From the IMG/VR virus record IMGVR_UViG_3300037502_001322, positions 39,676 to 103,675 of that record: DNA of 64,000 bases; one strand, 5' to 3'. A model generated the notes under the pieces. It was not told the DNA's origin and made no database searches. It was given only the letters and a program-made list of their open reading frames with translations. Position 1 is the stretch's first letter; each line of letters opens with the position of its first letter. This DNA comes from a virus. Positions 7,289 through 18,710 of the stretch are shown in pieces. A program made the translations under genes and the position numbers.

Positions 7289-8638
7289 TTACTCTTTATA
7301 TTTGTAGTCCTCTGGATTCAAACCGTAGTTAGTTTTAATATAGTCGAGAATCTTGGGTAAATTTTTGACTTGAGTTGTTTCTGTGTACCCATCAGGCATT
7401 GTATTTTTAGTTACAAACTTAGTACCTACCAACTTCTTAATCTCACTCTCCAACTCTCGTATAAATCTTCCATCTGAAGATTTAAACTCATACAATATCC
7501 TTGGAACATATTTAGTGTACCTTCTCTGGTATGAAACCCTACCATTAACATCAAGGTTAGTTATTCCGTATTTTAAGAATGATAAGTTATCTTTATTCCA
7601 CACAACTAAGTACAACGAACCCGGTTTTATATTATTAAACCCTGCTTTTGCATGATTTGGACAGCCACTACCGTTCAAATGAGATGTAGCGGACTGTACA
7701 AAATATTCTGAACAAACTTTACAGTAAATCTCTACTTTATATTTAGCTTGTACGTATATTGTATTTGAGTAATCATACTCGTTATCTGGATGTACTTTCT
7801 TAGCTTTCATTATAAACTCTTCGATATTACTAAGAACTTGTTTCCTTTTAAATTCCTTTAAGCACAACGGGCAGCCTCCATTACCGCTAAGATGAAGGTG
7901 AGGTAGTTGCTCAAACTCATGGGAATGTTTATTACATATAATTTTAACTTTTGTCTTTGTATTAAGATATATAGCATTTCTATAATCATATTTATCACCG
8001 TGCATCTTTACAGCACGACTAATAAAAGACTCGATGTTTCCTCTACAAGAATCTTTTGCACATAAAGGACAGCCTGAACCAAGCAAGTGTTTATTGGGAG
8101 TCTGTAGGAATTCTCCGTGCAATTTACAAACTATAGCTACTTTAGTTGATACGTTTTTATAATCAACTTTAGAATAGTCATATTTGTTATTGTGTATCAC
8201 TGTAGCATCATTTGTAAAAGATTCTGCACTTCTTTTCTTACCGCAAGGATGGCACTTTTTATGATTTGCTCCTTTCAAATGAGAATTAGGAGTTTGCTCA
8301 AAATGTTCTTTACATTTATTACACCAAATAGTAACTTTTGTTCTGGTATTTTTATAGATCACTTCAGAATAATCATATTTACTCCCATGCTTTTTCTTTG
8401 CTTCCTCTATAAAACTTTCCTTATCTACAGCTTTGTACACGTCTCCACAGAGACGACAGCCACTCTTCCCATAAATGTGGCTTGAAGGTGTCTTCTCAAA
8501 GATAATATTGTGTTCAGGACATATTATTTTTACTTTAGTTATATTATTTTTGTACTCTACCAATGAGTAATCATACTTTCCTTTACCGTGAACTTCCTCG
8601 GCGTGTTTGATAAATTCTTCTTTTGTTTTTCTTGTCAC
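7289..8638 (-). CDS. Free-standing homing endonuclease-like protein: five DUF723-type zinc-ribbon repeats plus C-terminal GIY-YIG-like nuclease domain
   Basis: Five repeats FI..A...H..KYDYS...Y.N..TKV.I.C..H..F.Q.P..HL.G.GC..C; tail LYLV..LKYGITN..R..E. Confidence 0.75.
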   Translation of the reverse strand: MTRKTKEEFIKHAEEVHGKGKYDYSLVEYKNNITKVKIICPEHNIIFEKTPSSHIYGKSGCRLCGDVYKAVDKESFIEEAKKKHGSKYDYSEVIYKNTRTKVTIWCNKCKEHFEQTPNSHLKGANHKKCHPCGKKRSAESFTNDATVIHNNKYDYSKVDYKNVSTKVAIVCKLHGEFLQTPNKHLLGSGCPLCAKDSCRGNIESFISRAVKMHGDKYDYRNAIYLNTKTKVKIICNKHSHEFEQLPHLHLSGNGGCPLCLKEFKRKQVLSNIEEFIMKAKKVHPDNEYDYSNTIYVQAKYKVEIYCKVCSEYFVQSATSHLNGSGCPNHAKAGFNNIKPGSLYLVVWNKDNLSFLKYGITNLDVNGRVSYQRRYTKYVPRILYEFKSSDGRFIRELESEIKKLVGTKFVTKNTMPDGYTETTQVKNLPKILDYIKTNYGLNPEDYKYKE

Positions 8639-8725: not shown

Positions 8726-10025
8726 TTACACGAGCACTGCGGTACTGTGTACGATAACCTCCGGCTTCACAGGAACAGCAAGAACGGAAGTTTCGCTCTC
8801 CAGTCGGTAAGAACGGTTAAAACTATCTTCCTTATAAAGGAGAGTCAATTCTTGACCGGGCTGGTTAGCCATAGCAGCGTCATCTGCTGGAGCAAAGTAC
8901 AGACGGAACATATCATCGTTAGAGGAAACCCAAGGCATAACTACGGCCTTATCAGCATCCAAATAATCGTTGATAACTTCAATTATAAACAGACCTTTGT
9001 GGCTGAAAGTACGGTTGATAGCGTTACCACCCAGTCGCTTACGCAGAGGGTCTTGTTCACTGGAGTAATACTGGTATGCGGCCTGCACGATAGGATGCTG
9101 AATGAGCTTACTAAAGTAAGATTTACCAGCAAACATAACCAGTTGGTACTCAGTCATCATATCCTGAGCATTTACAGCAATGTGCTGACGAGCTTCTTCC
9201 AAAGTCTCAAAGGGGTCAGTGGTTGCATCAGTCAGATCAACACCAACCTGCTTCTTAGTAACACCAAAAGCGGTGTAGTAATCGTATGCAGGTGTCACAC
9301 CCTCACCTTCATAGGAAGTACCGTTGAAGATACAAGCAGACAGTACGCGCTCTTTCAGTTGAGCGTGCATACGGGTAATACGTTGCATGATGCGGATAAC
9401 TTCATCTTGCAGGGTTTTGGACTCATCACCAGAACCATACTTGCGAAAGTTCTGAATGTCTTCAGGTCGAATGTTACGCCTTTTATTCGAGTAAAGTCGC
9501 TACACTTTACCCCGTTCTCTTATGAACTGCTTATAGTTTCCTATAAGAGTAGACTATATCACGGTCTTCGATTAAAATCGTTAAGACCCCTACCACTTCG
9601 AACACCAATCGCTTGTGTTCTACTCCCACTCACGGGATAGTCGTTGAACCTTCTTCTCTGTGAGAAGCTTGGCTGCTGATTGCCCTCGTCTTGACCGATA
9701 CGTTAGGGGTTTCCAGCAATTCAATAGGTTTTCACTTAATCATTTCTGATAAAGGGGACTGCATTCAATCCAGAGGGAAAAACGGAACGTTGAAGTTCAC
9801 AGTTTGCGCGGTTTCAGAAGAAACGAAATTGCGCTCGCCGCCCCTACTACGTGCAGCAAACAAACCGTTAACTTCTTGAACACGTTCTACTTGGGCGACA
9901 GTAGTAGAAATATTATGAACACTGAACATATCCATACCGGTCAGCAGGGACCAAGTACGTGGCAGTAAATTGATCTCCGAACTATAATCCAAGAGCAGGA
10001 AATCGGATGCGCGGGTAGTTGCCAT
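8726..10025 (-). CDS. Major capsid protein, spliced: exons 10025-9768 and 9478-8726 (336 aa)
   Basis: Removing the group I intron restores ..NVPFFPLD|RNIRPEDIQNFRKYG.., a Phage_cap_E-like sequence; follows the decoration and scaffold genes. Confidence 0.92.
9479..9767 (-). ncRNA. Group I intron (IA-type, ORF-less, 289 nt) in the major capsid gene
   Basis: P1 GGAU|..GUCC with U.G pair; P AAUUGCUGGAAA; Q AAUCAGCAG; R GGUUCAACGACUA; S GAUAUAGUC; P7.1/P7.2 insertion; terminal G; frame restored on splicing. Confidence 0.92.
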
Positions 10026-10101
10026 TATTTAAAACTCCTAAATGAGAAAAGTTTATCTATTGTAGATATCTATTATTGAAATAAAATGCTGTTAATAACT
10101 G

Positions 10102-10527
10102 TTAAGCTTCAACGGCGGCGGCAGTGCCAAACACTTTATCAGTAACTTTGTTAGCACCAGCAGCTTCAAAAGCAGCGATAGCGGTAGCAGAAGCAGCTTT
10201 AGCAGCACCAGTAGTGCCGTCAGCCATCTTCACGTAGTTCTTATTCACGGTAACACCACGCTTAGCAACAACCAGAACATGATCCCCAGCAGCCAGACCG
10301 TCACCTTGGTCAACACGAACGTCAACCAGAACAGCAACAGCGTCAGCTTCAGTGGTAGAGGCGCCATCTACTACGTTAATCAGTTTAGTACCGGAGACTT
10401 CCAGCAGCATACCAGCGGTAGAAGCGGCAGTAACGGTCACAGTAGCTTCTTCGAAAGACCAGCCCAAATCGCTTGACTGAACACCACCGAGAACTACATC
10501 ACTATAAAATTTTTCAAGAGTAGCCAT
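10102..10527 (-). CDS. Head decoration/stabilisation protein
   Basis: 141-aa Ala-rich ORF with high-expression codon bias, directly upstream of the capsid gene. Confidence 0.7.
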   Translation of the reverse strand: MATLEKFYSDVVLGGVQSSDLGWSFEEATVTVTAASTAGMLLEVSGTKLINVVDGASTTEADAVAVLVDVRVDQGDGLAAGDHVLVVAKRGVTVNKNYVKMADGTTGAAKAASATAIAAFEAAGANKVTDKVFGTAAAVEA

Positions 10528-10590
10528 TTAATTAATTTCCTTTATTAACGTTAATATTAGTTTTTTGTTTGACAGGTTTAACCTAAACGA

Positions 10591-11721
10591 TTAAAGCCAT
10601 TCTTTCTGACCAAACTTAGCGGTGATTCGCTCAGCAAGGCTTGATTTCTTAATAGCGGTTTGGTCTTCTTCTTTAGATTCTTCAGCACCAACTTCCGCAC
10701 CCGGATTAGCAATAGCAAACTCTTCTTTTGCTTTATTCAGTTCTTCTTGAGCTTTCTGGAGCAGACCAACCAGAGTGTCCACAACGGGATTGTCAACGTT
10801 TTCCATCAGACCTTTAACCAGTTCATCTTTTTGTTCATCAGCAACAAAGGTCAGAGATTTGGTCAGGGATTGGAAGGACTTTTCCAGATTAGCTTTTTGA
10901 GCTTTTTCAAGTTCCTCAGCACGAGCTGCTTTCTTTTCCAGCTCTTCCATTCGCTTCAGAAGTTCCATATATTCAGCAGATTTGGTGACATCGGAAACAG
11001 GAGCTTCTGTTTTCTCTACTTCAACCTTTTCGGCATCAACTTGAACATCTGCTTTTTCAAGCTCTTGTTCTTGCTTAACTTCAGTTTCAGAACTCATTGA
11101 GTTATCATCCTCTTGTTTTTGAATTTCTTTCTTGGGTTTAGGTTTGTTTGAATAAGATTTAGGTTTCTTAGATTTTTCAATCTCTTCGATTGATTCTTGA
11201 ATCTTCAGACCTTGTTCAAACTTGATTTGAGTTTTAAGAATCTCAAGATATTCTTTAGGGTCAACACCATTAAAGTCTTTGAATGCTTCAAGAGATTTCA
11301 TAAGTTTGATATGAGAAACTTTTTCGTCCAGATATTCCCGATGTTGTTCAGGAGTATGTTCGTAGTGATTCTCTTCTTCATATTCTTCTTGTTCTTTCAG
11401 GTAATACTCAAACTCGGTTTCCATTCCAAGAAGGTGAGTCAGCTTTTCAGCATCACTCCAATAAAGACCAAAGAAACGAACAAGGAACTCTTCCATTGAA
11501 AGTTCGACAGTGACTTGAGACAAAGCTTTAAGAATATCAGCGTTAACCTCAATATCCTCTGACTTCATAAGCAGTGCAATATCTTTCCAACCATTAGCAC
11601 CATGACCTTGTGCTCGGTGGCACACAGCCAGATGGGAACCTTCGTGGTCAAAACTCACATCGGTGATTTCACTAAAATTCTCAAGGTCTTTAAGAATCTT
11701 ACCTTTATTTTTGATTGCCAT
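10591..11721 (-). CDS. Prohead scaffolding protein
   Basis: Glu/Lys-rich coiled coil between the protease and capsid genes. Confidence 0.75.
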   Translation of the reverse strand: MAIKNKGKILKDLENFSEITDVSFDHEGSHLAVCHRAQGHGANGWKDIALLMKSEDIEVNADILKALSQVTVELSMEEFLVRFFGLYWSDAEKLTHLLGMETEFEYYLKEQEEYEEENHYEHTPEQHREYLDEKVSHIKLMKSLEAFKDFNGVDPKEYLEILKTQIKFEQGLKIQESIEEIEKSKKPKSYSNKPKPKKEIQKQEDDNSMSSETEVKQEQELEKADVQVDAEKVEVEKTEAPVSDVTKSAEYMELLKRMEELEKKAARAEELEKAQKANLEKSFQSLTKSLTFVADEQKDELVKGLMENVDNPVVDTLVGLLQKAQEELNKAKEEFAIANPGAEVGAEESKEEDQTAIKKSSLAERITAKFGQKEWL

Positions 11722-11741
11722 TATTTATCCTCTTAACTTAG

Positions 11742-12497
11742 TTATTCTTTGTTATCCTGATTAACTTCAGCACGAGGTTTATGAACAATGCCTTTAGCTC
11801 CAATGCTTAAACCCCCAACCACACCAGCTTTGCGAAGCAACCACAGAGTTTTATCAAGATATTTAATCTCAGCAACCCAAGTTCCTTCTGAAACAGTGAT
11901 AGGGTTATCTTCAGTTCCAAAAGTCATTTCTTCATCAATCACATAAGTCTTAAGGATTTGAATCTGGTCTGGGGCATTCTGTAAATGGAATAGATTAGGT
12001 TGAACTATCCCTTTCTGGAGATTGTAGTTGAAGTTCTCACAAGCTTTAAGGATAGTTTCTTCACTCATCCATTCACCATGAGCATCAGGCTTGTAAGGTT
12101 CATAAACCACTTCAAGTGTTATCTGTTCTTCGTGGTTAACCGCTTTGAATAGATTTAAGTCAGAGGAAAAGCTATTAGATTTAGAATCTTTCTCGTGTTT
12201 GATTATTAAACTTTCATCTTGAGCAGATTGCTCTTGTGAACCATCTTTAATAGCACCGAAGTGATTATCTAAAAAGCTCTCAAACATTTTCAAAAGAGAA
12301 CCTTTATCATTAACCACTTCATTATCATTAGTGTTTATAACTTTTGTCTGTGCTTGTTCTATTTCTTTCTTCTTTAGAAGATTAAGATATTCAATAGATG
12401 AAAGTTTGTTATTAGGAGAATCCAACAAACCTCCATTAAATGTTATATTATTGATATTTATAACTATATCGCTTTTCAACTTTACTAAGTTTAACAT
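11742..12497 (-). CDS. Prohead protease, XkdF-like
   Basis: VVYEP..PDAHGEWMS.E.I.KAC..F, NLFH, GTWV, W...K.G...GLSIGA. Confidence 0.85.
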   Translation of the reverse strand: MLNLVKLKSDIVININNITFNGGLLDSPNNKLSSIEYLNLLKKKEIEQAQTKVINTNDNEVVNDKGSLLKMFESFLDNHFGAIKDGSQEQSAQDESLIIKHEKDSKSNSFSSDLNLFKAVNHEEQITLEVVYEPYKPDAHGEWMSEETILKACENFNYNLQKGIVQPNLFHLQNAPDQIQILKTYVIDEEMTFGTEDNPITVSEGTWVAEIKYLDKTLWLLRKAGVVGGLSIGAKGIVHKPRAEVNQDNKE

Positions 12498-12557
12498 AAT
12501 GGAAAAGTAAAATCAACAACTTATCAAATTGTCAACTAATTTTCCATTATTTTATTA

Positions 12558-14153
12558 TTAACTTTCTAAATTAGCGGCATCGTTATCTTGTCCAGAGTTA
12601 GCTGAACCCGTCCCTGACGGCAGACCCTCACTCATTCCATCACCAGAGCGTGATGTCTTTTCGGGAAGAATTGCATCAAGTTCTTCAGGACTCATATCAT
12701 CAGGAATGCGATATTTAAAGTCCAACCCTTCAAGAACTTCATTAATAAGTTCAGGAACACGGGGCAGGAAACCAACAGCAGCAACACGCTGAACAGCTTT
12801 AGATGTGTTATCGATATCCAAGTCATCCACAAGTCCGGGAAGAATCTTAGGCATATCTGAATCTTTAAGCTTAATTCCATTAAGTGCCAATAGTTGAGGA
12901 ATCAGTTCACGGTTAAAGACTTCAGCGTAGTACTCAATTTTATTCAGAATGATTTGACCATATAATCCTTTCTGCAAATCACCGAGAGCATATGAGCCAC
13001 CTGAACCATTCTGGCCCAGCATAATAAAGCCAGCTCCAAAGCAGTTAAGAATAGCCTTGTGGCGTTGCTCAATCAATTGTGTGGTGTCGAACTGCTTGCC
13101 TGCACCTTCTACGCCCAAGAACTTAATCTCGTACTCTTTAGCGGTTGTAGAGCCTTCCTGAACGTCTGAAGGGAGCATCATATAGGCTTGTTCACCAGCG
13201 TGAAGGTTAGCCACATTCTGTTGCAGCTTCATCAAAGACTTGGCTTCAGGGCCATTAGGATTAGTCACAGCAGCATCGAAGATAGCTTTAGGTGCATGAA
13301 TAACAGGAACACCAGACATATCTTTAGAAACACCAACAACTTCCAAGTCCTCAATAAGGACAATCTCACGCCAAGGTTTATAGGCACCAACTAAAGAGGA
13401 ACGACCTAAAGGATTACCATTAGTTGAACCGGGAGCAAACAGAAGGAACTTATTTCGAGGAATAAAAATGTCTGTGGGATTCTCCACTTGAGTTTCAAAG
13501 AAAAGATTTGACAAAGCATTCAGATTCTTAGTAGACTGGCGACAGCCTAAAATAGTGCGTGTGTCATCATCAAACTTAAAAGGCTTAGTTTCAGATAAAC
13601 TCTTTTGTGCCCTTGGTGACAATCGTTTCAGCTTATAAGGAAACTCAGGATATTCACCAGAAACATTAGCTTCATAAGCTTTAACCAGAATAGAGAATCC
13701 ATATTTCTCCGCAGTCTGAGCTTCGCGAACAGCCGCTCTCATTGATGTTTCCATATTATTGAGACACCAACTAACAAACTCTGTTGCTTTCTTTGACTCT
13801 TCAGACTCAGGATTACCAACGACTTTATATTGACTGAAAGCTTTTTCAATCATAACACGTTGAACTTCAAGAGCAACCCATACTGAAGGGTGGTAGTGCA
13901 TAGCATCGAAGGTTTTAAGACATTGGGGCCAACGAAGGTCAGCCTTCATTTCTTCATTAACAATATCGTTAACAGCTTTGAGACCAAGATACCCAATGTC
14001 ACCAATACGCAAACGAGAGGTTGCTACGCTCATGCTGTTAAGTTTTTCAATTTGACGCTTTACTTCTCGTTGTTGCTTCTCTTCTTCGGATAGAGGCGGT
14101 CTCCCACGCCCCCGTTTCTTGGTTGTTTTATTAACTTCGGTTTCGGAATTCAT
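12558..14153 (-). CDS. Portal protein
   Basis: 531 aa; YGFS..K, GNPLGRS.L..Y.PW, EVVGVSKDMSG.P; follows terminase. Confidence 0.9.
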   Translation of the reverse strand: MNSETEVNKTTKKRGRGRPPLSEEEKQQREVKRQIEKLNSMSVATSRLRIGDIGYLGLKAVNDIVNEEMKADLRWPQCLKTFDAMHYHPSVWVALEVQRVMIEKAFSQYKVVGNPESEESKKATEFVSWCLNNMETSMRAAVREAQTAEKYGFSILVKAYEANVSGEYPEFPYKLKRLSPRAQKSLSETKPFKFDDDTRTILGCRQSTKNLNALSNLFFETQVENPTDIFIPRNKFLLFAPGSTNGNPLGRSSLVGAYKPWREIVLIEDLEVVGVSKDMSGVPVIHAPKAIFDAAVTNPNGPEAKSLMKLQQNVANLHAGEQAYMMLPSDVQEGSTTAKEYEIKFLGVEGAGKQFDTTQLIEQRHKAILNCFGAGFIMLGQNGSGGSYALGDLQKGLYGQIILNKIEYYAEVFNRELIPQLLALNGIKLKDSDMPKILPGLVDDLDIDNTSKAVQRVAAVGFLPRVPELINEVLEGLDFKYRIPDDMSPEELDAILPEKTSRSGDGMSEGLPSGTGSANSGQDNDAANLES

Positions 14154-14247
14154 TGAGTTTTACTCTCCGTTTGATATAATGGTTTTCAGATACGGTTGTT
14201 TGGGTATCAGAATTTACTGACTTTGTTGGACAACTATAATCAGGTTA

Positions 14248-16276
14248 TTAGAAGCTGCTCAACTTTGTCGGGCAGCTATAATCCGGAATAGCTAAGGCAG
14301 TGTGAACTTTAGATGCTGCAAGGAAGTTGAATGCTGAAGCCACAGCATCGGCCCAGTCATCGTGACGATGTGTTGAAGATCTTTCACCATCGAATGCTTC
14401 CAATTCTTTCATTAAGGCTTCATAGGTTTTAGGAGAAAATGTAGATTTAACTATTCTAACAAAACCTTGTTCTGCTGCACTTGCGAACGGTTCAAATCTC
14501 TTAAGTTTGGATTTGTTACCGGGGGTTGGGTCTTTCTTTACTGTATAACCTGTCTCTATTAAAGGTTTAGCAGAATTCTGAAACTCAGATAATCCAGAAG
14601 CACCGGGATCTACAGGAAACACTACAACAGTGTCTGAACCATCATATTCAGCTTGCTTCCTAATAGTGACATCCCTTTCCCCTACTGATTTGCAGAATCT
14701 ACCTCCTGTTTCAGTAACATCGTCATAATTGTCTGGGTGATGGTCGCCTGTAATATAATAGAAACCATCCCGGCATTTATACATCTTACAAGAAGCTGTG
14801 AAGTCTGGGTTTTTATAAGAGACTGTTCGTTCTTTGCCAGCTTTATCCCATGCCCTTACTGATTTACAATGAAGAGGAACTTTATCTACTTCTTTAAGAA
14901 ATTCTCGTTTGAAATATTTAGCACCTTTAGGTCTTGCATCCCAATTACCAAAAAGCAACTGAGCTTTATCTACTGGGTTAAGACCTTCAAGAAATGCAAG
15001 ATAATCAGGATTGCTTTCAAGCATTGGAGGATTATCATATATAAGAGCAGAAATAAACTGAAAGGATATAGGTCGGACATTATCACCGAATTTCTCTTTC
15101 AATTCTTCCGAAGAGTTACCCCAGAAAAACTCGCCATCTCTTGTTATAAACCATCTAACCTTTCCATCACGTTCTGGGTCAGGGAACCCTTCATCATCCA
15201 GATACCAATCAATCAGTTCTCGTATTTTATGATCTGGATCCGGGTTACAAGTTATAACCATGCGTGAAGGGTATTTAGAGTTGGACCTCAAGCGAGACAT
15301 CATATATTCTACATTGTGTTCATGAGTGGGCGCTACACCACTCACCGGGATAGACCCAGCTACATGTTTCCATATAGATCAGACTATATCATCACCTTCA
15401 GCACTATCTGTTCAGGTGTCGTGCGCTTCGAGTGTCAATCGCTTACACTCTACTCCCTTTCGGGATAGTCGTTGAACGTTCTTCTTAAATTAAGAAGCTT
15501 CGCTGCTGATTGCCTTCGTTTATCAACGTTAAGGTTTTCCAGCAATTCACACGATTTTCAATAACACATTTCTGTATTATGCAGCTAGTTTTAACTGAGA
15601 CCACTCAAACTGAGTACCTTCATCTACACCTATCAATGAAAACTGGGCACCTTGTATGTTATACTTATCAGACTCCCTCTCCATATGACTAAACTTTTGT
15701 TTAGCCCCAGATGGCCATATAAACTCAAGAGCTTTTTCTCTAGCTCTTGGTCTTTGGTTTAGAGGTAACTGCATATAAATACTTTTAGCTGTATCCCATA
15801 TCCCTCCTCCAGATGTAATTTGAGGTGTTGTCCTGCGAAACATTATAATGTTAGTGTTAGGGTCATCTACTATAAAAAGAGGTAAAAGTTGTAGCAAGTA
15901 GGATTTACCTGACAGATGTTCAGATTGAGTCGTTAATTCAACCCCGCACCTTTATGTGCTGCTATGCATTTCTGCACAGTTCAGACTATATCATCAACCT
16001 AAACTGAGGTTGCCTCCCGTTTCGAATTCACTTGAACCCTACACCTTACGGTTAGTCGTTGAACCTTCTTCTCATAGAGAAGCTTGGCTGCTGATCGGCT
16101 TAGCTTAAGTTATTAAACCTTAGCGTTCCAGCAATTAAAGAGGTTATTCAATCAGTGTCACCACTGAAGGCGGCCCGTTAACCGGCGGCACCACCTGCTA
16201 CAAGTATTTGTGCTGTAGAATTAAGAATCATTTCCTGCTTCTTGGAAGCAGGGGCAAATAAAGGTTGATTACTCAT
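14248..16276 (-). CDS. terL: Terminase large subunit, spliced: exons 16276-16181, 15912-15594, 15311-14248 (492 aa)
   Basis: Splicing rebuilds Walker A GGAAG|SGKS and IGVDEGTQFEWSQ-L-EYMMSRLRS..TCNP; nuclease motifs RAWD, D.TA, HDD.AD. Confidence 0.93.
15312..15593 (-). ncRNA. Group I intron (IA-type, ORF-less, 282 nt), terL intron 2
   Basis: P1 CAGU|..GCUG with U.G pair; P/Q/R/S elements; P3 UCGUGUG/CGCACGA; ends in G; junction T|TA makes Leu and restores frame. Confidence 0.92.
15913..16180 (-). ncRNA. Group I intron (IA-type, ORF-less, 268 nt), terL intron 1
   Basis: P1 CGGU|..GCCG with U.G pair; AAUUGCUGGAA, GAUCAGCAG, GGUUCAACGACUA, GAUAUAGUC; inserted inside Walker A. Confidence 0.92.
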
Positions 16277-17788: not shown

Positions 17789-17864
17789 TGGTGCAGGCAA
17801 AAGGCCTCGAACCCTTGACATCCACATTACAAGTGTGGCGCTCTACCGACTGAGCTATACCTGC
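17789..17864 (-). tRNA. tRNA-Thr(UGU)
   Basis: Full cloverleaf, anticodon loop CT-TGT-AA, GGTTCGA T-arm, encoded CCA. Confidence 0.92.
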
Positions 17865-18633: not shown

Positions 18634-18710
18634 TGGTCCACCACGCAGGACTCGAACCTTCAACTGTCCGCTTAGAAGGCGGATGCTCTATCCTATTGAA
18701 CTAGTGGTGG
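18634..18710 (-). tRNA. tRNA-Arg(UCU)
   Basis: Cloverleaf, anticodon TCT, encoded CCA; one T-stem mismatch. Confidence 0.9.

Follow-up and report, generated by a model that had tools for sequence, protein, structure and literature searches.

A 64,000-nt stretch of phage DNA (the window; bases 39676-103675 of the 103,675-bp IMG/VR record IMGVR_UViG_3300037502_001322, a single metagenome-derived contig from an uncultured phage) carries three group I introns on its minus strand, one in the major capsid protein gene (mcp) and two in the large terminase gene (terL). Judged by their sequences, they are very probably functional introns of subgroup IA. We hold with high confidence that all three are intact, self-splicing elements without an open reading frame (ORF), that they belong to a set of five introns of the same family within the late structural module, and that they were likely acquired by endonuclease-driven homing. 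An initial annotation of the window had described the introns as three in number and restricted to capsid and packaging genes. That restriction was imposed by the window edge: the record holds five introns, and the remaining two interrupt the tape-measure gene, which lies outside the window.

Scanning with the Rfam group I intron model RF00028 (gathering score 50 bits) returned minus-strand matches at 15360-15603 (103.4 bits), 15962-16194 (92.8 bits) and 9530-9776 (88.9 bits), one at each of the three annotated places. The capsid intron (9479-9767, 289 nt) separates mcp exon 1 (9768-10025; 86 codons ending in FFPLD; PF03864 positions 8-76 and phrog_29 positions 25-106) from exon 2 (8726-9478; 250 codons plus stop, starting RNIRPEDIQ; PF03864 79-328 and phrog_29 108-357). 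In terL, a short exon 1 (16181-16276; 32 codons, aligned to the TerL of CR8) ends at GGAAG, within the Walker A motif, and is followed by intron 1 (15913-16180, 268 nt). Exon 2 (15594-15912; 106 codons plus one nucleotide; phrog_979 177-280 and PF03237 8-109) then extends from SGKS to VDEGTQFEWSQ, where the phase 1 intron 2 (15312-15593, 282 nt) intervenes before exon 3 (14248-15311; two nucleotides, 353 codons and a stop; phrog_979 282-621 and the PF17289 nuclease domain), which starts (L)EYMMSRLRS. Intron 1 thus lies inside Walker A and intron 2 nine codons past the DE of Walker B, as the initial annotation had placed them. All three introns lack an ORF, and their lengths leave too little room for an endonuclease gene.

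Removing the introns in silico restored both reading frames, in agreement with the earlier claim that excision does so exactly. Spliced terL (15913-16180 and 15312-15593 removed) measures 1479 nt and encodes 493 aa, and spliced mcp (9479-9767 removed) measures 1011 nt and encodes 337 aa; in each, the only stop codon is the terminal one. The predicted ligated junctions (slashes mark junctions or insertion sites here and below) are CTGGAT/CGTAAC in mcp, GCCGGT/TCAGGT for terL intron 1 and CTCAGT/TAGAAT for terL intron 2. The spliced TerL aligns without gaps to the uninterrupted TerL proteins of the Vequintavirinae homologues CR8 and DP over GGAAG/SGKS and EWSQ/LEYM, and the spliced capsid protein does so to that of GEC_vB_MG over FFPLD/RNIRP. 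Pfam and PHROG profile coordinates also run continuously across each terL and mcp junction. Because the frame is restored, the homologues align without gaps and the profile coordinates are continuous, the intron boundaries are exact. The true 3' ends lie ~48 nt beyond the RF00028 matches, since every member of the family bears an additional P9.1/P9.2 extension. The ribonucleotide reductase genes nrdA (745 aa) and nrdB (357 aa) and thyX are all uninterrupted, as the initial annotation had noted.

The ribozyme anatomy and the junctions are established. Each 5' exon ends in a U that pairs with a G in a short P1, the last intron nucleotide is a G in all three (9479, 15913 and 15312), and all have a conserved core that spans P3 to P9. 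P1 is a hairpin of ~6 bp made of four exon nucleotides ending in the U.G pair, two intron pairs and a tetraloop. In the capsid intron, GGAU/UG pairs with CAGUCC and places the U.G at the splice site; in terL intron 2, CAGU/UA pairs with UAGCUG. Both hairpins are the minimum-free-energy folds of their segments, which bears out the P1 proposed for them earlier. We derived a consensus fold and covariation counts from an alignment of 43 family sequences (A2). Compensatory changes occur in 47 of the 55 predicted pairs, including pairs of P2, P3, P5, P6, P7.1, P7.2, P8, P9 and P9.2. The P7 pseudoknot is paired at all four positions in every one of the 43 sequences, with six double substitutions. Two helices (columns 193-195/228-230 and 244-247/261-264) covary strongly within the P3 closure (43-48/270-275); lying between P7 and the P3 3' strand, they correspond to P7.1 and P7.2 and hence give the subgroup IA signature, as had been proposed.

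In-frame stop codons sit close to the 5' splice sites. The first intron codon is TGA in the capsid intron and TAA in terL intron 1, and the stop in terL intron 2 comes after five codons; across all five introns of the record, the stops lie 0, 0, 5, 0 and 8 codons in. In the introns of T4, stops of this kind prevent ribosomes from entering the ribozyme as it folds. A similar arrangement may operate in this phage: late transcripts of the large terminase gene would carry two introns and those of the major capsid gene one, ribosomes would halt at a stop no more than eight codons from the 5' splice site and thus before the ribozyme, and exon ligation would be needed for full-length TerL, capsid and tape-measure proteins.

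Extending the Rfam scan to the whole record revealed a fourth intron 1.7-2.1 kb ahead of the window start, and a motif scan combined with reading of the sequence uncovered a fifth that the Rfam scan had missed, presumably owing to the ORF that divides its core. A search for exact copies of three core motifs gave precisely five locations in the record, every one on the minus strand. The two additional introns, A and B, lie 857-2074 nt before the window start (L007:1451-2668, equal to G000:C1:37601-38818; minus strand) within the tape-measure gene. Intron A (L007:1808-2668, minus strand) is 861 nt long and intron B (L007:1451-1775, minus strand) 325 nt, and between them lies a micro-exon of only 32 nt (L007:1776-1807, minus strand) that encodes EELNNQLGDR plus two nucleotides and is invisible to ORF callers. 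Splicing in silico produced a continuous tape-measure protein of 755 aa, in which the micro-exon and the first residues of exon 3 fill 18 profile positions that are absent between the flanking exons (PF20155 107-124; phrog_2335).

Intron A encodes a 206-aa HNH protein in its P6 loop, with matches to phrog_59 (E 8e-30) and to the I-HmuI structure PDB 1u3e (E 2e-5). This ORF overlaps core elements at both ends, the P5'/P4' block at its start and P6'/P7/P7.1 at its end. Upstream of it, in the P5 loop, lie a 12/12 sigma-70 promoter (TTGACA-17-TATAAT) and a Shine-Dalgarno sequence (L007:2590-2618, minus strand). The earlier statement that none of the introns encodes an endonuclease is therefore right for the three in the window but not for the phage, whose local intron set includes this HNH endonuclease; among the five, only intron A carries one. 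The accompanying proposal that head production depends on three splicing events needs a similar extension: TerL and the capsid protein would indeed require splicing, but the predicted total is five events in three late genes.

Two points weigh against this reading. When the P1 segment of terL intron 1 is folded in isolation, the minimum-free-energy structure favours a helix without the U.G pair; the U.G pairing is drawn instead from the family alignment, in which an alternative 5-bp helix places the G in a family-conserved column. In addition, CheckV estimates that the record is 74% complete, and further introns may exist in the part that is absent.

Intron content aside, the phage is placed by its predicted structural genes as a distant relative of the rV5-like myoviruses (Vequintavirinae). 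TerL exon 3 shares ~63% identity with the TerL of Certrevirus, and the figure for the capsid protein against its Seunavirus counterparts is ~45%. Within IMG/VR we found no closer relative (maximum identity 62% for TerL and 35% for the capsid protein). The closest TerL relative is a Logan-derived protein, P0008, at 80% identity, and a search of capsid exon 2 against 5.8 billion proteins returned its own window ORF and nothing else. Upstream of the terL region, Rfam detects two minus-strand tRNA genes, at 17792-17864 (67 bits) and 18637-18710 (56 bits).

The initial annotation drew attention to long sequence blocks shared by the three window introns and proposed that one ribozyme lineage had spread to new sites. 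The blocks are present, but they are not special to these introns. The pattern AATTGCTGG...ATCAGCAGC...GTTCAACGA recurs verbatim in at least 113 other IMG/VR contigs among the matches listed, and blastn detected the introns at ~70% identity in 260-307 isolated phages, whose hosts include Staphylococcus, Vibrio, Pseudomonas, Escherichia, Bacillus and Campylobacter. The shared blocks are thus core elements of the whole family. Many viral contigs of IMG/VR (loci L035, L096, L060, L059, L058, L113 and L067) contain three to six family matches each within a few kb, those of L035 falling within about 5 kb, and multi-intron phage genes appear to be common in metagenomes.

Multiplication of a single lineage within this genome, by reverse splicing or ectopic homing, would make the copies one another's closest relatives. 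We consider this possible but doubtful. All five introns share a common architecture and the 3' extension, with pairwise identities of 69-80%. However, the three window introns are only 70.5-71.3% identical to one another, compared with 75-80% to their best matches in unrelated contigs. A maximum-likelihood tree of 59 family members, whose 265 columns carry too little signal, grouped the capsid intron with four metagenomic introns from unrelated contigs (support 92/83) and put terL intron 2 elsewhere. It did cluster terL intron 1 with tape-measure introns A and B (86/92), and the nearest relative of terL intron 1 within the genome is the HNH-bearing intron A, at 80% identity. An approximately unbiased (AU) test did not reject a single clade, either for all five introns (p 0.47) or for the three in the window (p 0.28). 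Since the window introns are no closer to one another than to outside relatives, and since the tree separates them although the AU test does not reject one clade, spread within the genome is no more than a possibility, most plausible for terL intron 1 together with tape-measure introns A and B.

A tblastn search with TerL, the capsid protein and the tape-measure protein against 119 loci (which include 113 intron-bearing viral contigs among the matches listed) found no capsid homologue, and among the viral contigs only five terL homologues, each with introns at other sites. Comparing the five intron-less junctions by eye, we saw no common motif beyond GGAU at two of the 5' exons.

A second alternative holds that the insertions stay unspliced and that separate polypeptides assemble after translation, as is reported for nrdA of Aeromonas phage Aeh1, which is split by mobE, a precedent cited in PMC7344957. 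The same paper reports one unspliced intron in Pectobacterium phage CB7 and suggests separate polypeptides for one CB7 gene (PMC7344957). For the phage studied here this is very improbable. The ribozyme cores retain every family-invariant position and all pairings. Translation of unspliced messages would yield a 32-aa TerL fragment cut within the P-loop and would leave the tape-measure gene with a 32-nt exon that lacks a start codon; terL exons 2 and 3 and mcp exon 2 likewise have no start codon at their junctions. A chimeric joining of intron-like sequence during assembly might be suspected in a single metagenomic contig with no close IMG/VR relative, but we give it practically no credence, because five insertions restore frame and homology to the nucleotide and each P1 fits its own 5' exon, which chimeras would not do.

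The favoured reading is that of spliced introns acquired by homing, in which both splicing and the route of acquisition are inferred. Arrival would most likely have occurred by endonuclease-driven homing into conserved motifs, after which the endonuclease ORF may have been lost or mobilization may have continued in trans. Introns are already documented in the terL genes of related phages. Pectobacterium phages CB7 and phiTE (Certrevirus, Vequintavirinae) carry an HNH-bearing terL intron, and splicing of the CB7 intron has been proven by reverse transcription PCR (RT-PCR) (PMC7344957). The CB7 gene is orthologous to terL here (~63% protein identity), and its intron, also placed next to Walker B in the ATPase domain, matches the family profile over its 3' half (E 2e-14) and shares the P9.1/P9.2 tail. 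By our own reading, however, the CB7 site is VD/EG, which lies 27 nt upstream of the position taken by terL intron 2, and the CB7 intron contains an HNH gene. CB7 also differs in having one terL intron, with none in Walker A, and no introns have been reported in its capsid or tape-measure genes.

Escherichia phage RudolfGeigy (Vequintavirus) provides another case. Its terL was deposited as a three-piece joined coding sequence (CDS), and the two introns implied by that join are ORF-less members of the same family in an orthologous gene. RudolfGeigy intron 2 shares 69-75% identity with the five introns described here and has the best profile score, 155 bits. The sites differ, being DEG/TQF and ALI/YDNPP, neither of which is used in our phage. 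In contig L125 (IMGVR_UViG_3300020407_000019), whose TerL is 52% identical, an intron (L125:1620-1876, plus strand) interrupts GGA/AGSGKS, 6 nt upstream of where terL intron 1 enters Walker A, and appears to have been inserted into that motif independently.

The site of terL intron 2 is empty in the relatives compared. P0008 reads straight through it, and neither this protein nor the named relatives carry the intron; none is close enough to show a recent gain. The P0008 ORF call begins at a methionine equivalent to M56, which is only suggestive of a Walker A intron there. Across the TerL homologue clusters (P0008-P0126), 56 of 119 ORF calls (47%) start more than 20 residues in, although some of these will reflect contig ends, and the late starts cluster near residues 31-32, 41-47, 56, 122-132, 142-143 and 156-158. 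Starts just past Walker A and Walker B suggest that unannotated terL interruptions are widespread in the clade, again with some attributable to contig ends. Introns occupy at least six different nucleotides in orthologous terL genes and cluster on Walker A and Walker B, a distribution which, on sequence comparison, shows that the ATPase motifs of rV5-like TerL have received introns on repeated occasions and at different nucleotides.

The intron-bearing capsid gene is followed directly downstream by a free-standing gene for a 449-aa endonuclease-like protein (7289-8638, minus strand; phrog_681, E 1.6e-100; phrog_559 (HNH); DUF4379 zinc fingers). We regard this protein as no more than a candidate trans-acting homing enzyme. 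Genes of the phrog_681 type stand beside intron-bearing structural genes in three separate lineages: mcp in this phage, the tape-measure gene in Escherichia phage nepoznato, and terL in L125, where a homologue lies just upstream. The nepoznato genome (MN850571.1) contains an unannotated, ORF-less intron (L123:2385-2697, minus strand; RF00028 92.9 bits) directly upstream of the tape-measure ORF nepoznato_256; homologues of the 449-aa ORF adjoin it, and both CDSs that flank the intron were deposited as hypothetical. Neighbouring free-standing endonucleases might keep ORF-less introns mobile in trans, an arrangement termed collaborative homing, but we rate this as unlikely. Because the loci were sampled with bias, mobilization in trans is a lead rather than a finding. 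If it were true, the terL ATPase motifs of the clade would be a battleground.

Several better-known phage introns share features with those described here. The SPO1 DNA polymerase intron, which encodes I-HmuI, is likewise of subgroup IA and has a stop near its 5' splice site, and the ORF of tape-measure intron A encodes an I-HmuI homologue. The introns of Twort and of T4 td, nrdB and nrdD are also phage subgroup IA introns with HNH genes. In SPO1, Twort and T4 the hosts are genes of nucleotide metabolism and replication, whereas in the present phage those genes are intron-free and late virion genes are interrupted. Introns in capsid and tail genes have been described with RT-PCR evidence in the Cluster J mycobacteriophages LittleE and BAKA (PMC3706429), and that paper also cites a capsid intron in lactococcal phage Tuc2009. 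LittleE and BAKA resemble our case in that introns interrupt both a major capsid gene and a gene of the tail, with an endonuclease ORF present in one intron and absent from the other; splicing was demonstrated for a very abundant late mRNA. Together with Tuc2009, they differ in being unrelated phages with another capsid fold family, other intron sequences and a single intron per gene.

The introns are new members of a large, known phage family, found in genes and in a phage group for which introns had been reported before, and they leave the current understanding of group I introns unchanged. What is notable is their density (five introns in three essential late genes, with a 32-nt micro-exon), the use of new sites for insertion and the hot-spot pattern seen for TerL. 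There are practical consequences for annotation. Gene callers fragment terL, the capsid gene and the tape-measure gene in this genome and miss the micro-exon entirely, and the same intron family lies unannotated in deposited genomes such as that of nepoznato. For phage biology, this genome adds an example in which five splicing events would be needed by three essential late genes of the virion while nrdA, nrdB and thyX, classic hosts of introns, are clean, and its clade offers a useful system for studying how introns and endonucleases choose their sites.

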